A DNA stretch of 63,999 nucleotides, the filler included, from Chrysochromulina tobinii (Eukaryota), in assembly GCA_001275005.1 (NCBI GenBank). It is 5 parts of 5 records of this genome, joined end to end, with 100 filler letters (N's around TTAATTAATTAA, not from the genome) between each part and the next. Parts side by side here need not be neighbours in the genome. Positions count along the whole stretch, not along the records: positions 22,587 to 38,346 come from JWZX01000913.1; 4 more parts are not named here. The stretch is one strand, 5' to 3'. Positions within the stretch are counted from its first letter, which is position 1. Each line of letters begins with the position of its first letter. A model generated the notes under the pieces. It had not been told where the DNA came from, made no database searches, and saw only the letters and a list, made by a program, of their open reading frames with translations. Made by a program: the position numbers and the translations under genes. This document shows positions 1-35,900 of this stretch, one piece after another.

Positions 1-461
1 GCGAGCGGTAGTGCGTAAACACAGCGGGTGCGTATACGTACCCCCTCGCGTATACACAGGTTTCTGCGTATACGCACCCCCGACCGCGTAAACGCAGGAA
101 ACGACAAACCGTAATGGCAAGACTTGAACGTTGAAGTCACGCATAGAACGGAGCGAGTATGTTCGGCATGTCTCTCGTCTCGCACAATCATCAACATCAT
201 CACAAGAGCCAGCGGCAGCGCGGAGACCGGAGTAGAGATGTTGACCGCTCCGGCCGCGGCCCGCGGGCGACGGGCGTGGGCCTCCGTGGGGCGACCGCGG
301 CGGGCGCGGGACCGCGAGCGAGAGCAGAGAGAGATCGCTTTTGTTTTGCCGTGCGCACTCGCGGGCGGGCCGGGCGCGCTCTCCAAGTGCTCATATCGTC
401 ATATTGCCTTGCCTTCGAAGGCGGTGCATCTAAAACTCATATTTCCTCTGTCCAATGCGTC

Positions 462-2214: not shown

Positions 2215-4383
2215 TTAATAGCTGAAGTTGCCCTCGTACATGAAATCGCCTCCGCGGCACAGGCGAGCCATCTCTCTGCGGCACTGCTCCGTCACCGGGA
2301 AGGCACGCTGCAGCCGACCAGGCGGAGTGAATCGAGTATCTGATGTGGCACAGCAATGGCGTGAGTAAGAGAGGTTGATCCACTTCAATTCAAGCTCATG
2401 GAAGTATTTCGTCAACGTGGGGGTATAGGTTGGTATGGGTGAGGTATGGGTGAGGGAGCAGGCAGAGGATGAGGACCCAGACATATGTGGATGGAGGCAT
2501 GGAACATGGCGCGAGTCCGCGAGAAGGCAGAAGCAAATGTGATGAGGTCGCGTTGCACGACCGCGGGGCGTGGAGCGTTGGGCGTGCGCACAAAGGTTAT
2601 CATTCTTCCAGCCCGGTCGCAGTGAGCAGCCGAGTACGGGCCCTCCGAAATGCTGATGCATCATTTGGAGGGTGACTTGCGACCACGCCGAGCCAAACGA
2701 GCCGATCAGCGCGACGCCGTGCTGGGCGATCGCGAGGTTGAGGATCGAGTGCCATCCGATGTGATGGAGCATTTCGCGAGTAGAGCTGAAAGGACGTGCA
2801 GGGGACGGTTGCTCTGTACTGCTGTCGTCGACGCCGAGTCCTCGAGCTCGACGAGCTCGCGTTGCATCTGCCTCGGGTGCTGCCGAGGGTACCGATCGGT
2901 CACTCGGCCTGCTCGTGCGCGAGGATGACACATCGCCATCGCCTGCTGCAATTGGTGTGCCGTTGCGCGAGTTGGCGCCAAAAGCCATTTGCAGCAGCTT
3001 CTCACGCTGCTCTTCGCCGTATTGGTTCCGATAGTCACCCGGATTCCACGGGTCGATCTTGAGGTCAAAGCGGCGTTGGTCTGTCCAAAAGCAATTCCAG
3101 CTGCGCTGCTTGCACTCGGCGCTGAAATTGGCGACGACGGCGGCTGTCTCAGTGACCAGCAGCACGTGGCGCGTTCCGAAGCAAGTGGAAGACAAGAGCT
3201 TTGCCAGGGGAGGCAGGTACTGTTTGAGCAGCAGAGGCTTTTCCTCGACGTGCTTACCGCCCATACGCACGAGCACAACCACGAAGGGCTCCACCAGCAA
3301 GGTTCCATCGGCTTCTGCCACCGTTTGCGCATGGCGAAGCCGAGCGGATGTGGACAGCACGCCTGCTTGCGAGGAGGAAGCATCCCGACTTCCGCCTATG
3401 CGATGGCGACCAATTGAGCGACCACCTACGATGCGTGCCTCGCCGACCCGGCTGCCGCCGCCGCCACCGCCGCCACCGCCGCCGCCGCCGCCGCCGCCAC
3501 CGCCGCCGCCGCCGCCACCGCCGCTGCCGCTGCCACCACTGCCGCCACCGCCGCTGCCACCGCCGCTTCCACGGCCGCTGCCACCGCCGCCGCCGCCACT
3601 TTCGCTGCCGCCACCGCCACCGCTGCCGCCACCGCTGCCGCCTCCGCTGCCGCCTCCGCTGCCGCCTCCACCGTTTCCGTTCAACATGCCACGACTGCTG
3701 CTGAGCAGCCGCACGCCGTGCTCGTGCAGGAACTCAAGGGACGTTCGGTGCACCCACGGCCGAAACTTGAGGAGCACGTCCCAGCTCGCACCGAACCAAA
3801 AGCTGCGGCCGAGCGCCGGTATGCAGTGCATCCAGCGTGCGTAGAGCGCGAAGATGCCGAGGGAACGGTCGTCGTTGGCAAAGCTCAGCCGCACGACTGC
3901 ATGCTGAAGCGTTGCTTTGCCAAAGCTCGGAGCATCCCATTGCACAGGCGGTCGCCGACGAGTAAGAAAGTCGGCGATCAGATTTGGGTCGTCCTCGCAC
4001 GTCGACCAGGGCTCGAAGTAGCAGCCATGGGATTGTGGGCCTTCGTCGCACCATCGCCATGAGTGGCCACGCATGAACGCTGAGGTCGAAAGAAGTGTGC
4101 GATTCTCCGACATCGCCTGCAGTAGGAGGGCATGGAGAACAAGGAATGAGAAGCCCATGCCCGACTGCTCGTTGAATTCGTCCAGCAGCAGCACGCGTGA
4201 GTTGCTGCAATCGACAGGGTTCTGTGCTCTGTGTAGAGCATCAAGGAGGAGCGCCCTGTCTGGACCGTGCATAAACCAGTGACACGTGCCGTCGACGCCC
4301 TCGGCGGCGAGGCCGAGCAAGGGCTTGTGACGACCGACGCAGACGCAGCAGCAAAAGCCGAGCAGCGAGGCAATGCGCAGCAT
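2215..4383 (-). CDS. GT23/FUT8-like alpha-1,6-fucosyltransferase with a poly-Gly insert
   Basis: N-terminal signal/anchor; LHRAQNPVDC, GMG..., CYFEPWSTC, VLVRMGGK, LLVTET and IGSFGSAWS parallel the FUT8 motifs QNPKDC, VHVRRTDK, YLATDD, VCTFSS. An intron near the 3' end is probable but not resolved. Confidence 0.7.
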   Translation of the reverse strand: MLRIASLLGFCCCVCVGRHKPLLGLAAEGVDGTCHWFMHGPDRALLLDALHRAQNPVDCSNSRVLLLDEFNEQSGMGFSFLVLHALLLQAMSENRTLLSTSAFMRGHSWRWCDEGPQSHGCYFEPWSTCEDDPNLIADFLTRRRPPVQWDAPSFGKATLQHAVVRLSFANDDRSLGIFALYARWMHCIPALGRSFWFGASWDVLLKFRPWVHRTSLEFLHEHGVRLLSSSRGMLNGNGGGGSGGGSGGGSGGGSGGGGGSESGGGGGGSGRGSGGGSGGGGSGGSGSGGGGGGGGGGGGGGGGGGGGGGGSRVGEARIVGGRSIGRHRIGGSRDASSSQAGVLSTSARLRHAQTVAEADGTLLVEPFVVVLVRMGGKHVEEKPLLLKQYLPPLAKLLSSTCFGTRHVLLVTETAAVVANFSAECKQRSWNCFWTDQRRFDLKIDPWNPGDYRNQYGEEQREKLLQMAFGANSRNGTPIAAGDGDVSSSRTSRPSDRSVPSAAPEADATRARRARGLGVDDSSTEQPSPARPFSSTREMLHHIGWHSILNLAIAQHGVALIGSFGSAWSQVTLQMMHQHFGGPVLGCSLRPGWKNDNLCAHAQRSTPRGRATRPHHICFCLLADSRHVPCLHPHMSGSSSSACSLTHTSPIPTYTPTLTKYFHELELKWINLSYSRHCCATSDTRFTPPGRLQRAFPVTEQCRREMARLCRGGDFMYEGNFSY
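3452..3672. repeat. (GCC/GCT/ACC)n trinucleotide low-complexity tract encoding poly-Gly/Ser
   Basis: Directly visible. Confidence 0.9.
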
Positions 4384-4821
4384 GTTCTGTCTCTACGATT
4401 CGATTTTAGCAATAATCCTCAAGGTGGGTCAATATCCGGATAGGTCTCCACAGGTAAGAAAGGAAACCGAATGCATGCATAGACCCATATAGATTCCTTC
4501 CGAGAAATCCATTTTCTAAATTTCTGTCAGCCCCACAGCTAAATTTTTGTTTTGGTGAGCTTGATGCCTTGATCATTTTCAGTGATGGCAACCATTCCTC
4601 TAGAGAGCGAGCGCTGCGCAACAAAGACGTCCGTCGCTACACGGTACGGCTTTCAGCTGTAGACGTCTGTATGCGCTATGGTTGCACGTCGAGGTTACAC
4701 GGTGGCCGCCGCGATAGAAATTTTTGATGTGAATTTCAGAAAGCGCGCCGTGGCGGTGAGCCGCCCTCGGTCAAACCAAGACCCGCGTCCTCTCCTGTTC
4801 AATACACTGAGCCGAACCAGC

Positions 4822-13918: not shown

Positions 13919-16847
13919 CTACCCGCGCGTATCACCGCGCGCCGCGGCGGCTCGGGTCACCGACGCAGTCGCCACGGCGCGTGCGGCAGGCGAGTGCAGC
14001 AGCGTCGTAACCTCGCGCGACGCGACGACCTTGCGCGCGGCGCGGCAGCCAGCGGAGTACTCAAACTGTCGCAGCGCGCTGCTCAGCGCTTGGCGGGAGC
14101 GGGCACGCCTCTTAAGCGGATGCATGCGCATGTCGACGCCCTCGCACCGGATCGCCGCGGCTTCATTGGCGGCGGCGGCTACGTCACCGAGTCTCGCGTC
14201 CAAGAGCACGCTCGCGAGCTCGGCTGCATCGAGCAGGGCCTGGTTGGCGCCTTGTCCTTTGAATGGTGCCATCGGGTGCGCCGCGTCGCCGATGAGGGTG
14301 GTGCACGAGGCGAGCCCAGATTGCATCTCGTCGCGCGAGATGGCGCCGTCGCCGTTGAGGGTGGCGGCGCTAGCCAGCATTGGCGGTGCTGGCCCCTGCG
14401 TTGGCGGCGCATGCAACGAAGTCGGCGGCGCACCCTCAACGGCGCGCGGCATGGCCGTTGGAAGCGAGGCCATCAGAGGTCATCAGAGGCCATCAGAGGT
14501 CATCAGAGGTCATCAGAGGCAATCAGAGGTCATCAGAGGCAATCAGAGGTCATCAGAGGATGACGATCACCTGCATGGCCGTTGGAAGCGAGGCCACTGA
14601 CGCCGCGGAGGCCGGCAGCGCTCCACCCGGGGTCGGCGCTCGATACGGCGCCCCTAAATAGGCAGGTGGTGCTCGATACGGCGCTCCTTCCGGAGGCACG
14701 GGTGCTGCTGCAGCCGCGCTCGAGACGGCGCGCTCATACGGACTCAGCCGGTCGTAGATTGGGTAGCCCGTCACGTCGTTGGCACGTGTGGCCGCTAGCA
14801 GCGCGTGCACCGCAGGCGAGCACCATGCGCTACAGCGCTGCCGGGCCTCAGCGAGCAGAGCCCCGCCGCCGCGAGATGAGAGCTCCCGCGCCGCCTCCTC
14901 GGCCATCGGGAATGAGAACTGCCACATGGTGGCGCTCGCCATGTCGCTCGTCGTGTCGCTCGTCGTGTCCACGCTCGCATCCGAGGCCACGCCCGCGCGC
15001 TCAAATGGCATCGCGTACATCCGATTGGCGCCATCGACCCATTCCACGACAGTGTGCGCGTCGAAGAGCGACGTGACGTGCGACGTAACGTGCGACGTGC
15101 TGGGCGCCGTGCTGGGCGTCGTGCTGGGCGTCGTGCTGGGCGCCGTGCTGGGCGCCGTGCTGGGCGTCATCTCCTCGGCCTGCGCTCGCAGGGCGGCCGT
15201 TGCAGCGATGCCGAGGATGACGATCACCTGCATGCAATGAGGGAGGCAATCAGAGGTCATCAGAGGCCATCAGAGGTCATCAGAGGATGACGATCACCTG
15301 CAACGCGCGCAGCGGCGCGCTGTCTGCCTCGCCGCTCTCCTGCACGAGTGCCGCGCGCACTGCGGACCGAATCCCATCGGCACCGACGAGAACCTTTGCC
15401 CGGACGGTGCGGCAGGTAAGCGGCAGTGGCGCTGCCTCCTCTGCACCCTCTCCATGGCCGCCGATTGCCACTGATTGCCTCTGATTGCCTCTGATTGCCT
15501 CTGCACCCTCTCCATGGCCGCCGTGCTGTGCTTGATCGCGGTACTGCTCGACCGTCACTTGGACGATGTTGCATGGCCTGGTGGACGCCGCCACGCCCGC
15601 CGCCGCCACGCCCGCCGCCGCCACGCCCGCCGCCGCCACGCCCGCCGCCGTCACGCCCGCCGCCGCCTCGCCACACATCTCTTTCTCATCATCAGGAGCC
15701 GCCTCGTCCAAAGGCGTGACGCTGATTGCATCGCTGATTGCATCGCTGATTGCATCGCTGATTGCATACTGATGATCTCCCTCATCAGGAGCCGCCACGT
15801 CCATCGGCGCTTCGCCGCTCGACCCTTCCCTACGCACACGTGCCCCGCGGAACCGGAAGCCCCAGCGCACCGTACCCGGCGACAGGCCCGCGTACAAGAG
15901 CGCGCGCAGCGACTGGCGTGGAAGGTGAACCTGTGGGGAAGTGGCGCGCCGTGGTGAGCACGTGCATGCAAGGCGTACAAGAGAGCTCGCAGCGACTGTC
16001 GCGGGAGGTGCACATTTTGCTTGTGTGCTGCCGTCGAGCCCGCCCGCTTGCACTGTGCCGCCATCGAGCCCGCCGCCGGCGCGCCACTGGCGGAGGCCAC
16101 GCCCGTGCACGCGCTCTCGGCCGCAGCCGCCGTCCCGTCAATTGCCCTAGGAGCCTCGATGGGTTGCTTGCCCGACGCCAAAGCCAAAGCGCTGTCGACT
16201 CGCGTCGCCGCGTCAGGCGCAGCGGCGCGCGTGGCGGCGCCATGGCTGCCAATCAGAGCGCCGGAGAGCGCGTCGAAGGAGTAGTGTGCCGTGCTGTGCA
16301 GCCCGGCCGTCGTGACCGCCTGCGTAAGCCCAATGGCGCGCAGCGCGGTACCCCCCTGCTGCATCGTGAGCCCGTAGCCCTGACTGCGCTCGCCGATCGA
16401 CTTGTCACGCTCGTACACGGCGCATCGCACCCCTCGCTGCTGCAGAGCGAGCGCTAGCGCGAGGCCTCCGATCCCGCCGCCGATGATCGCGACGTCCACG
16501 GACTCGATGACCATGCCGTCCGCTGGAAGAACACGGCCGCCATTCTCTGCACCGCCACTTACCTCGTTGGCGTCGGCACTTTGGACCGCGTCGCCGCGCT
16601 CCGCATCTGAAATCGGGCTCCGAAGCATCAAGCCACTGCCGCTGCAGGCCGAGCAAGGCACCATGGGCGGCGGAGTGGGCGGCGCAGTGGCGACTTTGCG
16701 CTTCTTTTGATGAGGCACCTGGCCCGTGCCATGGCAAGCGACACAGCTTCGATAAGCAGGGATCGCAAGTTTGCACAGGCGAACCCATTGGGGCTCGTGC
16801 TGACTAGCTGCAAGAGCTGGCGCGTCGCTCCACGCTGGCGACGCCAT
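13919..16847 (-). CDS. FAD-dependent monooxygenase with N-terminal CxxCxGxG zinc finger; introns 15931-16013, 15228-15297 and about 14396-14570
   Basis: IIGGGIGG, VYERD, LVGADGIRSAVR and LIGDAAHPMAPFKGQGANQALLDA spread over four ORFs joined in frame by GT-AG introns; CVACHGTG and CSACSGSG at the N-terminus. Confidence 0.8.
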
Positions 16848-25592: not shown

Positions 25593-25723
25593 GGATCCTC
25601 GAGCGAGATGCGTGATGAGTTTCCAACGTGCTCGCGATCGTTACCGGTAGAGTCATTTGAACGGTACATGACTCCTTCAAGCAACAGACCTTTTCCAAAT
25701 TAGGGGCTGTGAAAGCGCGGGCG

Positions 25724-26524
25724 ATGCTGGAGCCCGCTCTCAAGTGCTTGTGGACGTGCGCGACGGCAGTTGGCACACGAAAGCTTGGCTGGCTCGTCAG
25801 CCGCATTTCCACCTACAGCGATACTGCCTTCTACTTCGAAGGCGTCGAAGGCGTGGTTGCGCTCACCATCGACGATGGGCTGGCGCGTGGCGGGGTGGAG
25901 ACGAGCCTGGTGAGCGAGGTGCTCAGCTTGCTCGAGCGTCACGATGCGCGGTGCACGTTCTTCGTGTGCTCCAAGTATTTGGCTTCGTTGGGGGCCGACA
26001 GGGTCGTCGCTGCCGGCCACGAGTTTGGCAACCACATGGAGGAGGACAAGTTTGGATACTCGAAGCTCATGCCTGACGAGTTTGAGAGGGCGCTCAAGGA
26101 GTCGAATGACGTGATCGAGGCGGAATCGGGCGCCACCGTCCGCTGGTTCCGTGCGCCGCAGGGCGTCCTGACGTCGAGCATGCGTCGCGCGATCGTGCGA
26201 TTGAAGCTTCGCCACGCCATCGGCGACGCCTACTGCGACGACTGGGCAGTGAGCGACGCCGATTGGGTGGCGCGGACGCTGCTCCGCCAGGCTAAGGCAG
26301 GCTCGATTGTCATCTTGCACATGCCAGAGCGAGGCCACCGAGAACACACGCTGGAGGCGCTCACAATGGTGCTCCAGGGCCTGTCGGATCGTGGTCTAAA
26401 GTGCGTGACGCTGACGGAGATAGATAGAGGCGAAAGCAAAAGGGGCGCGGGAGATCCCGGTGGAGGTGCTGTAGACGTTTTACAGGCGTCACACTATCAC
26501 GTGAATATCATGGCTAAACGGTAA
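25724..26524 (+). CDS. Polysaccharide deacetylase (CE4/NodB family)
   Basis: ALTIDDG, CTFF, HEFGNHM, FRAPQG, GSIVILH. Confidence 0.85.
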   Translation: MLEPALKCLWTCATAVGTRKLGWLVSRISTYSDTAFYFEGVEGVVALTIDDGLARGGVETSLVSEVLSLLERHDARCTFFVCSKYLASLGADRVVAAGHEFGNHMEEDKFGYSKLMPDEFERALKESNDVIEAESGATVRWFRAPQGVLTSSMRRAIVRLKLRHAIGDAYCDDWAVSDADWVARTLLRQAKAGSIVILHMPERGHREHTLEALTMVLQGLSDRGLKCVTLTEIDRGESKRGAGDPGGGAVDVLQASHYHVNIMAKR

Positions 26525-27416: not shown

Positions 27417-27718
27417 TGATTTTGTATCTCGGTATATCTTGATGTATCTTGATGAAGAGTCCAGGATACATGTACATGTATCCTGATGTATCTTGATATG
27501 TACATGTATCCAGTGTGACACCTTTTAGTGACACCAAGGAAGCGCGCAAGATACATGTATCTTGATGTATCTGATATGTATCCCCTATGTGTACTTGTAT
27601 GTGTATCTTGGACTCCTTTAGGGTAGGGAGATTCAGGTTACGTGTAGAATAAATGCAAAACATTGAGATACATGTAAGATACGTGTATTCTCTTCCAATG
27701 TAACAGAGCATGTAAGAT
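27417..27718 (+). repeat. Solo internal fragment of the GATACAT-rich transposon family
   Basis: Colinear with about 30847-31110 (shared TGATGAAGAGTCCA, GTGACACCAAGGAAGCGCGCAAGATACATGTATCTTG, TAACAGAGCATGTAA). Confidence 0.85.
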
Positions 27719-28222
27719 AGAGTCAGCCTCGACAGGCTCATACGCGTCGCATCGGCGGCGTCGTTGCGAATTCAGATAGTTCGCGGAGCTGTATTTTTGA
27801 GGGGTTACGGCCCGAAGCGGCGCCCGCCGGTGTCGATCACCCCTAGACACAGGCGTGCCCGCCAGGGCGCGCAACACATTTCACTCCATCACGCCACTTC
27901 GTTTCGTCACGAATGGCCGGCCCCGTCCGTCACTCGACAGACTCGGCCCCTCAGCCGGCATCGACCTCGATGCCTTGTTGCCTTCCCATCGCAGACGCCT
28001 CAACCCGTCCTCGCGCCCGCGCCCATGTAGGCATCAGCCGGCTGCAGTTCTTCTTTTTCCCCACCCAATGCCGTGCATCTTCCCGACCGCCTGGTCCGGA
28101 CCGCCCGGTCCTTCTTGGCGAGCGCCCACTCTCGCCACAATCCCCTTCTTCACACTCGTCTCTCGCCACCGCCCCCCCGGACATCGCTGCCTTGATGCTC
28201 AATGCCGTTGCCGTTCCCGACA

Positions 28223-29959: not shown

Positions 29960-31193
29960 ACAGTCAGTATGACGGTGCGGATGGAGGCGGCGTTGATGCG
30001 GTTCCAGCGCGCCTCGGCGCTCGGGCGGTGTGGGGGAGTCGAGAGGGTACAGTACAGTATACTGTAACCGGGAACAGTATATACGGGGTCGACCTTGTAC
30101 GGCCACGAACTAGGAATTAGTGTTTCGTCACTAGGACTACGTACGCAATCTCCGTATTATAGTCACACCGCGCGCTACACGCGCCCCCGTGGGCGTTCAC
30201 ACAACACACACCTCGTCAGCACTCACGTGCTCTCCTCACCTAGAGGGATCGGCATCCTCGCGCAGTCCCCACGGCGCGACCAAAGGGCAGGAGGGCGACG
30301 CACGCGTCGGACCCCCCTACACACTAGCCAACACACAGGGGGGTCAGGGGGGGTTTCTTCTCCTTTTGGGGGGGGGCTCCTATCGGATACGTATCCTGAT
30401 GTATCTTGATGTTTTCTTGATGTATCCTGCATGTATCCAGATACATGACACACAAGATACAATCACGATACAAGTCAGATACATGCGTGATACATTTAAA
30501 GATACACACAAGATACGTATATCGAGCCCTACTTGCGACCGCGCTTGGATACCCCCAAACCCCCGAGATACGTGTCCCGCATGTATCCCGCATGTATTCC
30601 GCATGTATCCCGCATGTATCTTGATTACCTCTGAGGATACATGTATCTCGCATGTATCCTGCACGTATCCCGCATGTCTCCTTCATATCAGATACATCTC
30701 TCTCTGGATGCATTTGAGATACATGTATCTCATCATGTATCTTGGATGTATCCCGCATATATTTTGATCACCCTTGCAGATACATGTACCTCGCATGTAT
30801 CCCGCAGATACGTACCTCGTCATGACGCGTCCAAGGTACATGTATCATGATTTTGTATATCGGTGTATCCTGATGTATCACAAGATGTATCGTGATGAAG
30901 AGTCCAAGATACACGTATCCTGATGTATCTTGATATGTATCCAGTGTGACACCAAGGAAGCGCGCAAGATACATGTATCTTGTTGTATCTGATGTCGTGA
31001 TGTGTATCCCAAAATGTATACATGTAATGGACTCCTTTGGGATACGTGTAAAACACATGCAAAATGTCAAGATACATGCATTCTCTTGGAATTAACAGAG
31101 CATGTAAAGATACATTTGAGATACATCTGGAAACACTCAACGTGTATCCTTCAGGATACATGCAGGCCACCATAGGCGCCCAGATAATGACCC

Positions 31194-31571
31194 CTATCTC
31201 CACTGAGCGTCCAGCCATTTGCCCCTTGGGTTAAGAGAGAGCTGTGGTGGTGTCTGTTCAGCTACGACTCGGAGCATTTCCCTGACATAATCTCGCATCG
31301 TCAACATCTTCTTCACTAGATACCCAAACAGATACCCGGGACCTAAGAAAGCTCGGTGCCCCCAGAAGAGAAGCCGAGTGTATCAGCGGCGCCCTCAGAA
31401 AGCATAAACATTCCTGTCAGTCCAGTTCCCAGGCATGTTAAACAAATTCCCACTGGATACCAACCACTCTCGCTCGCGACGTAACCTTTGCGAGTGACCA
31501 ACAATTCCTCGTGGTTCTTTACGCATTGCACGCAGTGCGAGAGTTTGTATAGAAGGTACATTAGACGCCAT
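31194..31571 (-). pseudogene. Cargo ORF C (126 codons, two internal TGA)
   Basis: MASNVPSIQTLALRAM...VYAF*GRR*YTRLLFWGH...KWLDAQWR-TAG; TGAs at 31395-31397 and 31383-31385. Confidence 0.5.
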
Positions 31572-31618
31572 TTTCAGGAAGGGGTTGGAAATTGCGGTTA
31601 CCGCGTCGTGTTGGGCGC

Positions 31619-32044
31619 TTACCGGTGTGTATAACCTCGCCATTGCATGTATTGTTGGTCGCGCGCAGCTAAATCCACAATGTCATTGAAACCCCGTCGG
31701 TCTCTGGTGTGCCACCCTTCTTGACCCGGGGTCACTCTCCAAAGCCCATCTTCACGATACTCAAAGGGTGACCCGGTGGGCCCAAACTGACTATAATGAT
31801 TTGGATACCTTATGTAATAATCAGGCGCAATAGTGTGAATGTAAACGAGGTTGATACGCGGGATTCTAGCTCGCGCAATGATCTTGCGAAAAATCTCGTT
31901 TAATCTCTTTAAAAGCTGTTGGGTCCGAGTCACAATTGGTCGTATGACCCACTCCCAGGCTCCACTCACACGTCTTAGTTCCGTGTTGTCCCCTGCGTTA
32001 AACCAGTTAATGAATAGGGGGCGATTCGCGCGCGTCGCGGGCAT
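31619..32044 (-). CDS. Cargo ORF B, 141 aa, unknown function
   Basis: Intact ATG-TAA frame, intronless, visibly less GC-rich than host genes, flanked on both sides by the 27-bp motif. Confidence 0.55.
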   Translation of the reverse strand: MPATRANRPLFINWFNAGDNTELRRVSGAWEWVIRPIVTRTQQLLKRLNEIFRKIIARARIPRINLVYIHTIAPDYYIRYPNHYSQFGPTGSPFEYREDGLWRVTPGQEGWHTRDRRGFNDIVDLAARDQQYMQWRGYTHR

Positions 32045-32100
32045 AAGCTGTCACAATACTTTTAGAATATGCTCATGCGGTTGCCACGTCGTGTTGGGCG

Positions 32101-32310
32101 CTAGAGGGGGTCGAGCCACCATTGATCTCACGATCCATCGTGCATAGGCGGTCGGATTGGACGCGGTGGATCAAATGGACCCATTGCACCAAAGCCTTCG
32201 TCAACATAAATCATAATTCAAGCGCATCCATTCAGGACGTCGTCGGCCAGGTGGGGGGTTTCGAAACGCCCTTCTAAACATCTCCCTAGCCACTCTCCTT
32301 AATGATTATG
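32101..32310 (-). pseudogene. Cargo ORF A remnant (5'-truncated, probable frameshift, one TGA)
   Basis: RRVAREMFRRAFRNPPPGRRRPEWMRLNYD then in another frame YVDEGFGAMGPFDPPRPIRPPMHDGS*DQWWLDPL-TAG abutting the motif. Confidence 0.35.
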
Positions 32311-32951
32311 AGGTATGTCGAAATCAAGATACAATCAAGATACATGTACTTGTACATGCAGGATACATCAAGATACATCCAGATACGTATCCGATAGGAA
32401 ACTCCCCCCCCCCAAAGGATAGGAAACCCCCCGTCACCCACACACAGGGTACGAACGCGGCACGGCTCCAGTGACGGTAGTCTCAGTCCTCCTCACACTC
32501 TGTACTCTCTCAGCAGCCGTTCGGTTGAGGGCGGGCCGCGCCGGGTGGGCAACCAAGAATGGGCGGCTGCTGCGCTCCCACCTTCGGACCAGACGCGCGG
32601 CACCCGCGATACATGTAACCGCGACGGTCTACGCGGCTCGACGCGTACAGCGGTCCCAGTACCACAACACATACAAGATTATAAATCGCGCATTAAATCG
32701 CACATGGCATGGCCCAACACCTCTCAGACACACACCTCCGCGGACCGAGATCGAAACAGGGGCGGGATGCCTAGCAGGGGCGGGTATCTCGATGGCTGAT
32801 GCTGTGTCCATTCCCACACAGTCCGGTCGCACCGCATGATCGCTTCGAAGAACCCGTGCTCAGATGCCACCCGCCCTCGCGCAGCTCCAGTTGCACAGCA
32901 CCACTCGCCTCACCCCTGCGAACTCACTATCTCGATCTCACCCCTGCGAGC

Positions 32952-35900
32952 TCACTGCTCGGCTGTGCGCCCCCAGTAGAAGAGCCGTGAGCGCATCTCC
33001 TGGAAGAAGGATCCCGAGGCCGAGGCCTCATTGTACACGAGCGTCGATGCCTCGGGCTCGTCGAGTTGGGCGATGGGCTCATCAGAGGCACGGCGATGGC
33101 TGGCATTTCGCATATCTGGCGCATCGGAGGCATGGCGGCTCGGAGCAATCAGTTCACTCGCCTCCGACCGCCTCGATGCCTGACGACTCGGCCGCAAGGA
33201 AGCTGACGCCTGCCGGCTCGGCAAGAGCGGCAGCGCACCGTTCGTGGCGGTCGCGGAGCGGGAGACGGGCAGGCCATTCGAAGAACGGCTTCCCCCTTCC
33301 CCCTCGGTGCCTGGGGGCGTCCATTGGAGCCACGGCCAGTGGCCGTCCAGTGGCCGAGTAGCGGAGACCCCACGGCGGACAAGAATTGCCGACGGCTGCC
33401 GACTCACCGACGGCATTGCCGACGGCTGCCGACTCACCGACGGCATTGCCGACGGCTGCCGGCTCACCGACGGCATTTCCGACGGCTGCCGACTCACCGA
33501 CGGCATTTCCGACGGCTGCCGACTCACCGGTGGCGAGCTCATCGATGGGACGGGCTGCGAGCTGGACTGCGAGTTGGAACGTGTCGGACGAGGCGGCAGC
33601 GCCGCGTTGGAATCCATCGCCTTGTGCGCCTGGATGATCGCCTTGAGGGCGCGGTTGGGCAGCAGCATCTCCGATGCCAGCGACTGTCGCGACACAGGCG
33701 AGCGAGGTACCCGCCCCTGCGAGCGTTCGTGCCGAAAGTAGCTGAGGATCCCCTCGCGCTCGTACGTGACGCCGTCCATAGCGATGACGGGATCCTCGAT
33801 CGTACAGAGGGTGAGCGGGCACAGCAGCGCCTCCGCCATGTACTGCTGCGGGTTCGTGATCACGATCGCGTCATCCGCCAGGCGACGCTCCTCGGAGAGG
33901 TCGGCGGCCTCGGGTCCCTCTGCGGCGAGGACGGCAGCGAGGATGATGTCGATGAGACCATCCGAACGCGGGTCGGCGTCGAGCAAAAGGTGTGTCGCCC
34001 GCCGCTCGCCACGCCGCATCTTTCGCACCGCCTCCGTGATTTCCCAACCGCCCTCTTCCTCCATCTTGAGAAAGCCCGCCTCGATCTTCGCCCACCCATC
34101 CTCGTCATCGGCCCCCTCGGTGATGAGCCGTACGAGGGTCTTGATGCCGAGCTGCACATGCAGTCCCTTGGCGTGGCCTTCGAGGTGCACCTGCGGTGGG
34201 TAGTACCGCTTGGCGGACTCGCACGCGCACACGTAGCGCCAGATGTGCTCGATGAGCGTCTGCGTATTGCCGTCTCCAGGGGCCGTCGCCACCAAGTTCC
34301 AGATCGCGCGCTCGCCCTGCCGCATCGCGTTGACCGCATCCTTGATTTTCCAGCCCGATCCGACCAGTGCGTCGATGGCGAGCACGACGTCTGACACGTG
34401 GGAACCCGCGGCGCGGTCGCCGACGAGGATGTACGCCGTGAGCAAGGCGAGCATCGACTTCTTCTCCCCCTCCTCCTTGATGAGCGCCTTGGCCTGCCCT
34501 TTGATGGGTAGCTTGGGGACCGGTAAATGTGCTGGGTCAAAGTAGCCAATCTGGCTCGGCTTGAGACCCACTAAGTCACGCCCGACACCCTCCAAACCCT
34601 CCACACCGCCCAGCGCGGCGCGGAGGGCACCCTCCACACCGCCCAGCGCGGCGCGGAGGGCATCGTGGTCGAGGGCGCCGTCGGCGCTGAGGGCGTCGAG
34701 GTCGACCCCCATCGCGGCGCGGAGATCGCTGAGAGGGTCGCTTCCAGCGAGGTGCCTCGCCATCGCCTCTGCCATCGACTCCACGTCGGGCCGTTGGTAA
34801 GCCGCTTCGCCAGTCGCGATCGCCGCTGTGGGCACCGCATCTGGAGGCTCTTCCCCGTCCAGGAGGCTCGTCAGGAGGTCCATGCCGTGCACCGACGCCA
34901 CCAACCCGTCGAGAGTGGCCACACGCGCCCGGAGCACGTGGGCCTCACGTCGGGTCTGCTCGCGTGCAAGCACGAGAGGCGCGCCCGCCTCCATCGTGGC
35001 CACCGCGATGGCGTTGTACCGGTCATGCCCGCCGTCAAAGCCGCGCTCATTCCAATGGTAGTCTCGGGGGTGCGACGGAGGGTCGGGCAGCGGCAGGAGG
35101 CGGATGAGAGCGCCGCCAACACTCCCGTACAAAGCCTCGGTCATCGCACCGCGGCCGCCGCCGTCCGTCACAGCATGGACCAGGACTGTGAACGATCGGG
35201 GACCCCCGGGGGCATGTGTGACCTGTTGCGACGCCATCGCCAAAGGGCTGAGGTCGGCTTCGTCACGACTCTGTCGCTCTAGGTCGACCCGACGAGGCGG
35301 CGCCGCCGCTGTGGCGGCGAGCAGGGTTGGAGTCTCGCGGCGCACGACCACGACGACCTGGTTGCGTGTGAGAACGTGCTCGAGATGGCGCGCCTCCTCC
35401 TCCGTCTGGGCCCGTGCGATGAGCCCGAGGCCGTTGGCGGTGATGCCTGAGCGCGCAGGGTGGGCGTGGGAGTGGGGGCGTTCGTGAGAGAGCATCCAGG
35501 GGAGATCAGGGGAGGTCAGGGGAGATCAGTGGAGGTCAGGGGAGCTCGCCACGCACCAGCGCGCATCTCGAGCATCATTTCGCCACTCGTGTGCCAACCA
35601 CGATCTGGCCACGTCAGGGAGGCTCCGCTCGCATTCGTCCCTATGGCATTGATCACCTGCATCATCGCATGGGCAACGTCAATCGCATAGGGTCAGATCC
35701 AGGGAGATCCAGGGAGATCCAGGGAGATCCAAGGAGATCCAAGGAGATCCAAAGAGATCTGGGTAAATTCAAGGAGATCCGGGGAGATACATGGAGATAC
35801 AATGAGATCCTAGGAGATCCAAGGAGATCCACGGGAGATCCACGGGAGGTCATCTCACGGGCTCCGCCGCAAAATGTCAAGGAAGACATGGCAAAGGCAT

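Follow-up and report, generated by a model that had tools for sequence, protein, structure and literature searches.

The locus lies in a 63,999-nucleotide stretch of Chrysochromulina tobinii DNA, filler included, which we refer to as the window. Its surroundings look eukaryotic, and by Pfam the flanking host genes encode a U-box protein (32952-35495, minus strand) and a polysaccharide deacetylase (25709-26524, plus strand). The cassette cluster is composed of six features.

31165..31571, minus strand: cassette C pseudogene, with a 51-bp insertion, a frameshift and an absent 3' end; BC-box-like motif at the N-terminus (a lead only)
31586..31592, minus strand: AATTTCC box, a candidate for the core promoter of C; the first A of the box is shared with the motif as its last base, 31593
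31593..31619, minus strand: junction motif B to C, consensus form
31619..32044, minus strand: cassette B, an intact ORF of 141 aa whose family is unnamed
32076..32102, minus strand: junction motif A to B, differing from the consensus at 2 positions
32101..32310, minus strand: cassette A remnant, 5'-truncated, containing TGA stops; the 3' part of A also lies upstream of B in metagenome locus L022

The two copies of the 27-bp motif are identical at 25 of 27 positions, and matches with at most three mismatches occur in 0 of 100 shuffles of the window, bearing out what a preliminary description of this DNA had reported. Each copy abuts or overlaps the stop codon of A or B, and the next ATG lies 31 nt (B) or 21 nt (C) further on, as described (32 and 22 nt if counted from the 25-mer, shorter by one base). 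The lower GC content of the cluster is also seen, 0.48 across 31001-32000 compared with 0.61 for the whole window.

ORF B and the remnant state of ORF A are as first described. The preliminary description took ORF C as 126 codons; C is instead a pseudogene. Intact C, known from metagenome relatives, is 144 aa. In the window, both in-frame TGA codons of C sit within the 51-bp insertion (31347-31397), which intact relatives do not have, a frameshift lies near 31230, and resemblance to intact C ends at 31165. Recoding of TGA, under which genetic code 4 opens ORF C, is rejected because both TGA codons are inside the insertion missing from intact relatives, and also because the TGA in the 3' part of A aligns with TGG in L022. 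With A and C broken and B intact, the window copy is a dead fragment.

A small hairpin had been proposed in the 3' half of the motif. This half is the most variable across junctions, and none of four folds of the window copies is better than shuffles (z -1.3 to +0.7), so the hairpin is not supported.

The fragment is carried by a host transposon

A 2.1-kb inverted-repeat element with GATACAT repeats encloses the cassette cluster and is flanked by 10-bp direct repeats.

30331..30340, plus strand: target-site duplication, left copy, 10 bp (ACACACAGGG), from the sequence and the empty allele
30341..30424, plus strand: left terminal inverted repeat (TIR) of a host non-autonomous element, 84-86% complementary; probably Mutator-like, judging from the length of the duplication
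30425..31164, no strand assigned: GATACAT-rich subterminal repeats of the host element; L006 contains this block too
32353..32439, plus strand: right TIR of the host element
32440..32449, plus strand: target-site duplication, right copy, 10 bp

An allele without the whole element is present in run X15, where 30324 is joined to 32438, the empty site. The TIR arms comprise 36 and 57 nt at 84-86% and span about 85-100 bp, at the lower edge of the typical Pack-MULE TIR (100-500 bp). Between the TIRs lie truncated A and C and intact B, and no transposase-sized ORF.

Mutator-like elements are marked by a 9-11 bp target duplication, according to the accessible part of PMC3310237. Since the 10-bp duplication falls inside this range, the carrier reads as a Pack-MULE-like host element, probably of Mutator-like type. 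Like the Pack-MULEs described there, the window element has TIRs, a 10-bp duplication, no transposase and truncated foreign genes aboard. Unlike them, its cargo is viral, its TIR arms of about 85-100 bp contain a gap, and the cargo may have been inserted into the element rather than captured by it. A second, shorter GATACAT-rich repeat in the window (27417-27720) is related to the host element and has no TIR pattern.

The motif joins different genes in variable order

The exact 25-mer is present in 25 metagenome loci, which by their flanks represent about 10 distinct arrays besides that of the window. The window's own locus recurs letter for letter as L003 and L023 (identical over 31151-32330), possibly from the same organism. 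The arrays are all known from short-read assemblies, and one organism may account for several of them. Elsewhere in the metagenomes the motif lies at the boundaries of other, different ORFs, as the preliminary description had envisaged; it is real and not confined to the window.

Automatic clustering of the 29 junctions examined gave 23 upstream/downstream pairs. After two duplicates and one junction cut by a contig end were dropped, 26 junctions were retained, which comprise single-ORF units in variable order and make 21 distinct pairs of families, labelled by hand. Cassette C is preceded by four partners (B, X, E and F); cassette B is followed by C, by Y or by a terminal segment described below; and the orders B-to-Y and Y-to-B are both present. 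An open frame of at least 85 codons has its end within -1 to +11 nt of the motif in 17 of the 26 junctions, the other nine being broken or short units. The variable partners support the earlier proposal of modular cassettes with the motif tied to ORF boundaries. The longest array contains five motif-linked units.

Arrays also grow, as indicated by two cases. Protein P0027 contains a C-type end, the motif and the start of C in one frame, a tandem C, and L022 contains B twice, at a dS of 0.25.

The conserved part of the junction motif is 17-25 bp. Across 22 distinct junctions, positions 3-14 are near-invariant and positions 18-25 are variable, tending to track the downstream unit, a pattern that a crossover inside the core would give. 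Of 15 gene-facing motifs, 10 are followed by an AATTTCC-like box, and of 11 terminal-facing motifs none is; such a box also lies upstream of genes without the motif. Among the sequencing runs, X15 has Logan unitigs that are broken at 31607, a position within the motif. In run X6, seven contigs carry unlike sequence ahead of the motif at L015:5484, and one contig links the motif to gene E, which in L015 has no motif.

Gene-sized gain and loss is seen at motif-free junctions as well (L015 E-to-X, joints like 3241 to 3624, and L034 compared with L039), indicating that the motif is not required for turnover. L016 (1460-2410) and L010 carry an inversion whose breakpoints fall within cassettes X and D and not at the motif; it is seen in two assemblies, and runs X1 and X16 show it as a joint between opposite strands. 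Another host repeat is inserted into cassette Y (L022:1687-3508). Summed contig depth of the terminal segment and cassette C exceeds that of unique stretches, a depth sum being no copy number.

In the viral contig collection the exact 25-mer has no match. A 17-mer scan gives 20 matches there, which look like chance: single copies without array context in 30-40 nt of flank. A triple repeat in L030, considered as a junction motif, was rejected as a coding repeat.

Cassette families keep open frames and are probably fast-evolving

B has 10 and C has 22 homologous proteins; the two lists do not overlap, and none of the members is named beyond 'hypothetical'. B and C are therefore separate families and not paralogues from a tandem duplication, an outcome that would have undermined the cassette interpretation. 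The frames stay open and indels are in frame across 8-37% protein divergence, in line with coding ORFs. The dN/dS values, pairwise and from few sequences, are 0.55-0.94 for B, C, D and E, 0.16 for one close pair of X and 0.27 for the YqaJ nuclease described below.

Nothing usable for B and C came from Pfam or the Atlas, ORF B having no Pfam match. The predicted fold of ORF B (pLDDT 47) is too poor for a fold search, and none of 55 candidates in the viral contig collection is related to B by alignment. A profile of C matches no solved structure; against protein representatives it finds 6 family members and 13 weak matches, the latter long proteins aligned over 4-8 short stretches.

In a search for SOCS_box and F-box in 13 pieces, two pieces of X matched and the 11 others did not. 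The match is of SOCS_box positions 2-14 to the N-terminus of X (E 9.8e-5 for a 40-aa piece; 22.9 bits, just below the curated cut-off of 23.5). The N-terminal motif of X is doubled, and C, E and F open with a motif resembling it, without a SOCS_box match. The motif of X, C, E and F is a candidate BC-box. The SOCS_box match of X is the sole lead to a function, and with the like motifs of the other three it hints that cassettes X, C, E and F may encode Elongin-binding (BC-box) adaptors. Cassette Y looks F-box-like by eye and has no Pfam F-box match.

A PSL-x-x-L-A-like N-terminal motif, the one that is doubled in X, is seen in several unrelated accessory proteins (L001:1326-1445; L007:4036 and 4562; L013:1327; L015:2850; L008:3549).

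The array is linked to genes of a probable mriyavirus-like virus

In L015, L008 and L004, a YqaJ-family nuclease (Pfam 2e-20) and a gene of about 96 aa lie upstream of the array, and L015 also has a divergent 473-aa gene. Among the 15 ORFs covered, the Pfam scan finds YqaJ only, and no tyrosine recombinase or integrase. Used as a query against viral contigs, the nuclease finds 63 loci, of which 15 are 51-58% identical. In 22 viral loci tested, relatives of the 473-aa gene are present in 15 and of the 96-aa gene in 11; cassette proteins are present in none. The 15 closest viral loci, all partial, contain neither the motif nor a repeated junction word.

The viral relative L026 encodes Capsid_NCLDV, Pox_A32, Pox_VLTF3 and Pox_A22, and the order of its neighbourhood is that of Pleurochrysis endemic virus 2 in Table 1 of PMC11253617, a source accessible in part. 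By that gene order, the 473-aa gene probably corresponds to Mriya_1. All mriyaviruses encode a HUH endonuclease (PMC11253617) and none has integrases or integration genes (10.64898/2026.06.19.733378), as far as the accessible parts of these sources go. Such viruses are endogenous in haptophytes, according to the parts available of 10.1101/2022.07.28.501842, PMC12480563 and 10.1101/2025.04.19.649669.

Capsid and HUH genes are found only in relatives or in papers; the array-bearing loci end or are truncated before the capsid, packaging ATPase, VLTF3 and RuvC genes, and membership among the mriyaviruses is by linkage to three genes. The preliminary description had suggested looking for a recombinase, a HUH Rep or a capsid gene near other copies of the motif: a YqaJ/PDDEXK nuclease lies beside the array, and no HUH or capsid gene is seen on the array loci, which are partial. 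A crude HUH-pattern scan of ORFs in seven partial viral loci gave no convincing candidate.

The array likely belongs to a small giant-virus relative of mriyavirus-like kind, by inference of the Gamadviridae type. The linked viral core genes support the foreign viral origin proposed at first, and they point to NCLDV-type small viruses in place of the CRESS-DNA or Polinton-like origin that had been suggested. Polinton-like viruses are marked by a PLV-type capsid, pPolB/TVpol and an integrase, and have no VLTF3. A Polinton-like origin is rejected on the evidence of relatives, the closest viral locus having Capsid_NCLDV and Pox_VLTF3.

Two further features of these viruses deserve description. Close viral relatives differ in whether small Arg/Trp-rich ORFs, without the motif, lie between their core genes (L034:12900-13700 compared with L039:12270-12560). 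Telomere-like (TTAGGG)n tracts occur in mriyavirus-like contigs (L033:14640-15050; L034:11380 and 14460-14671; L039; L016:3440-3460), directly upstream of non-coding sequence rich in CGACC; in L016, a start codon follows a CCCTAA tract.

A conserved terminal segment probably marks a fixed end of the virus

The last motif of an array always opens a conserved non-coding segment of about 430 bp, which is 95-99% identical between arrays and is preceded by seven different families. That the segment is a gene is rejected, with dN/dS near 1, stops and a frameshift. It is rich in CGACC/GGTCG words and folds into a stem of about 270 nt (z -4.55, 0 of 200 shuffles). An Rfam search of L013 and L004 gives no match.

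In L016 a diverged homologue of the segment also begins with the motif (alignment score 64 with the motif removed, compared with a shuffle maximum of 45) and folds weakly (z -1.61). The motif opens two diverged non-coding segments without an AATTTCC box, and a pure promoter role does not explain those copies. The motif core itself has imperfect dyad symmetry with a loop of 6 nt, and in the L016 variant this symmetry is perfect. The L016 region (4130-4551, minus strand) has two motifs 42 bp apart followed by the diverged homologue and is internal to further viral genes; it is either a second subfamily or a nested element.

Of eight copies of the terminal segment, six end in CATATAC followed by unrelated host DNA (in one, 3 bases of it are visible), one is truncated, and one (L006) joins a GATAC repeat at a near-identical word. 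The L022 insert splits a host repeat of which an intact copy is present at window positions 1-100; there is no duplication, and the junction falls in shared TATAC. This TATAC-rich host repeat is seen at 1-100 of the window, as the empty target, and at L022:480-600 and 4690-4730. The left ends of the inserts are truncated and do not lie at the motif (L006, L007, L022 and the window). In L007 (5259-5575), another host repeat is inserted into the terminal segment. The viral relative L033 has a weakly similar CGACC-rich non-coding stretch (score 35, 0 of 100 shuffles), of low complexity.

Rolling-circle transposons leave no target duplication, according to the accessible part of PMC5714925. The HUH endonuclease of mriyaviruses, their lack of integration genes and the duplication-free fixed end together suggest HUH-mediated, one-ended insertion of the virus end, with two testable targets. 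Such insertion may explain why two viral pieces, in the window and in L006, lie in the same GATAC-rich element.

A model for the motif and its alternatives

We propose, with a probability of roughly 0.55, that the motif is a transcription-boundary signal that doubles as a point of homologous recombination, in the manner of the PeSL elements of phages, for the reordered accessory genes of an endogenous mriyavirus-like virus. The motif would end the upstream transcript, serve as the upstream half of a promoter with the AATTTCC box as its core, or do both. Because the same 17-25 bp bounds every unit, short-homology recombination between any two copies could swap whole expression units and leave the genes unbroken. 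The agents may be the YqaJ/PDDEXK nuclease beside the array together with a viral ssb, or host repair. The products would be fast-evolving host-manipulation proteins, some of them likely Elongin-binding adaptors. Pieces of the right end of the virus would have entered the host genome many times, and the window piece was either inserted into the transposon and then trimmed, or captured by the transposon. The outcome would be whole genes gained, lost, duplicated and reordered at the motif. Counting against this model, turnover also takes place without the motif, and most adjacencies can be fitted to one long master array with deletions, provided that every paralogue has a separate position in it.

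Alternatively, the motif could be the site of a dedicated viral enzyme, of which the mriyavirus HUH endonuclease is the likeliest. Cassettes would move as single-stranded circles, and the same enzyme would join the virus end to host DNA; the motif would be part of an origin or terminal region, and its internal copies would be working cut-and-join sites. We consider this unlikely overall, while noting that it explains the place of the motif at the terminal hairpin better than the PeSL-like model does. The common terminal segment and its diverged homologue both begin with the motif, the former being non-coding, rich in CGACC/GGTCG words and folded into a long stem; the core has dyad symmetry; and six of eight segments stop at CATATAC, with a duplication-free junction in L022 and a near-identical word in L006. 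The universal HUH gene and missing integrases of mriyaviruses, and the duplication-free insertion of rolling-circle transposons, agree with it, within the accessible parts of the sources cited above. However, no array-bearing locus carries a HUH gene. The distance from stop to motif is not constant even for one cassette (0-4 nt after C), and many of the internal copies are degenerate. The inserts have truncated left ends that lie away from the motif, and the diverged segment folds weakly. Moreover, the fixed-end evidence, from two testable targets, concerns integration and not the shuffling of cassettes.

A far-reaching form of this idea, which we offer as a speculation with the odds well against it, is that mriyaviruses run integron-like cassettes by rolling-circle HUH activity. 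An origin-adjacent motif would be duplicated with each added gene, the shuffled cargo would consist of effectors aimed at the host, among them several ubiquitin-ligase adaptors, and the HUH enzyme would also insert the virus end at TATAC-like host sites without duplication.

It is also improbable, in our view, that the motif is a transcription signal only and that the different orders arose by deletion, in the virus or by decay in the host, from one long, paralogue-rich ancestral array. Many inserts have indeed decayed, with nested insertions, the L016/L010 inversion and truncations; most DNA adjacencies can be placed in a linear order that has B at two positions; and turnover is seen also without the motif. 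Deletion does not readily give the tandem C of P0027 or two copies of B in one array at that dS, nor the fusion of an X start to an E-type end, given that E precedes X in L015. A master array would need more than 10 units, compared with the five of the longest array, and neighbour switches fall within the motif and not at random places.

Finally, it is very unlikely that the motif and terminal segment are the end of a host Helitron-like rolling-circle transposon that captured viral genes singly and left a copy of its end each time: a fixed 3' end, a subterminal hairpin, variable 5' ends and the lack of duplication would fit, but intact viral core genes lie collinear with the array, the cassettes are whole intronless genes and not fragments, and a weakly similar CGACC-rich stretch, of low complexity, is present in the viral relative L033.

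Significance and relation to known systems

Mriyaviruses are the smallest giant-virus relatives, and the accessible literature covers their core genes and not their promoters, the dynamics of their accessory genes or their integration without integrases. Among the accessible, mostly open-access texts on mriyaviruses, Polinton-like viruses, giant-virus cassettes and HUH or one-ended integration, none describes such an array, and a review of NCLDV promoters offers, in its accessible part, nothing that bears on the motif. Within the same coverage, motif-bounded gene shuffling is described for bacterial viruses and was not found for eukaryotic viruses. What the locus family provides is a boundary motif of 25 bp, candidates for a core promoter and for an origin or terminal hairpin, and a fixed integration end. 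A reshuffled, motif-bounded array of effectors would carry the PeSL principle of modular evolution from phages to a eukaryotic virus. If true, a HUH cassette system would explain how this virus class, which has no integrase, integrates.

Like the Mriyaviricetes or 'Gamadviridae', NCLDV-like dwarf viruses that include the Pleurochrysis endemic viruses and Phaglo-G, the array loci have PDDEXK/YqaJ divergent from a conserved gene, the closest viral contigs of the array carry NCLDV MCP, A32, VLTF3 and RuvC/A22, and these viruses are known to be endogenous in haptophytes. Genomes of this group measure 35-45 kb. A motif-delimited accessory array or a fixed integration end is not described for these viruses in the accessible parts of PMC11253617 and 10.1101/2022.07.28.501842.

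IS91/ISCR elements and Helitrons resemble the array loci in having one fixed end, a variable other end, no target duplication and a subterminal hairpin (PMC5714925, as far as accessible). Unlike them, the array loci have no Rep/helicase transposase, and the cargo is the end of a virus genome.

The array is not an integron, judging from the features of its sites and genes. Integron attC sites have paired inverse-core and core boxes that form a long imperfect hairpin. As in integron cassettes, each unit has one ORF with the site right after its stop codon, the order is variable, and units are gained and lost. Unlike attC, the array site is far shorter, and neither paired core boxes nor a long bulged hairpin is seen in it; the array ORFs scanned include no tyrosine integrase, and a start signal seems to be part of each array cassette. 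The comparison with an integron site in the preliminary description is accordingly not supported, the conserved part being 17-25 bp long and the window copies folding no better than shuffles.

The closest parallel to the proposed model is found in the T4-like phages RB49 and phi1, where PeSL (promoter-early stem-loop) elements have been demonstrated by experiment to act as promoter and terminator and to yield mini-circles (PMC2839356; PMC4122927; both accessible in part). For the array motif, such activity is proposed from sequence. The array differs from the PeSL elements of PMC2839356, again from its accessible part, in that the motif is 17-25 bp compared with about 100 bp and has no sigma-70 boxes, stem-loop terminator or Shine-Dalgarno sequence, as judged from the alignment, where the motif and the AATTTCC box alone are conserved, and in that the context is eukaryotic and virus-like, with the last copy opening a non-coding hairpin segment at the end of the element. 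In both systems, a conserved composite element lies between small ORFans in a variable region, and gene gain, loss and replacement map to it. In both, moreover, a stop codon lies directly before the element and a start codon shortly after it, and a dedicated recombinase is not needed, according to the available text of the same source.
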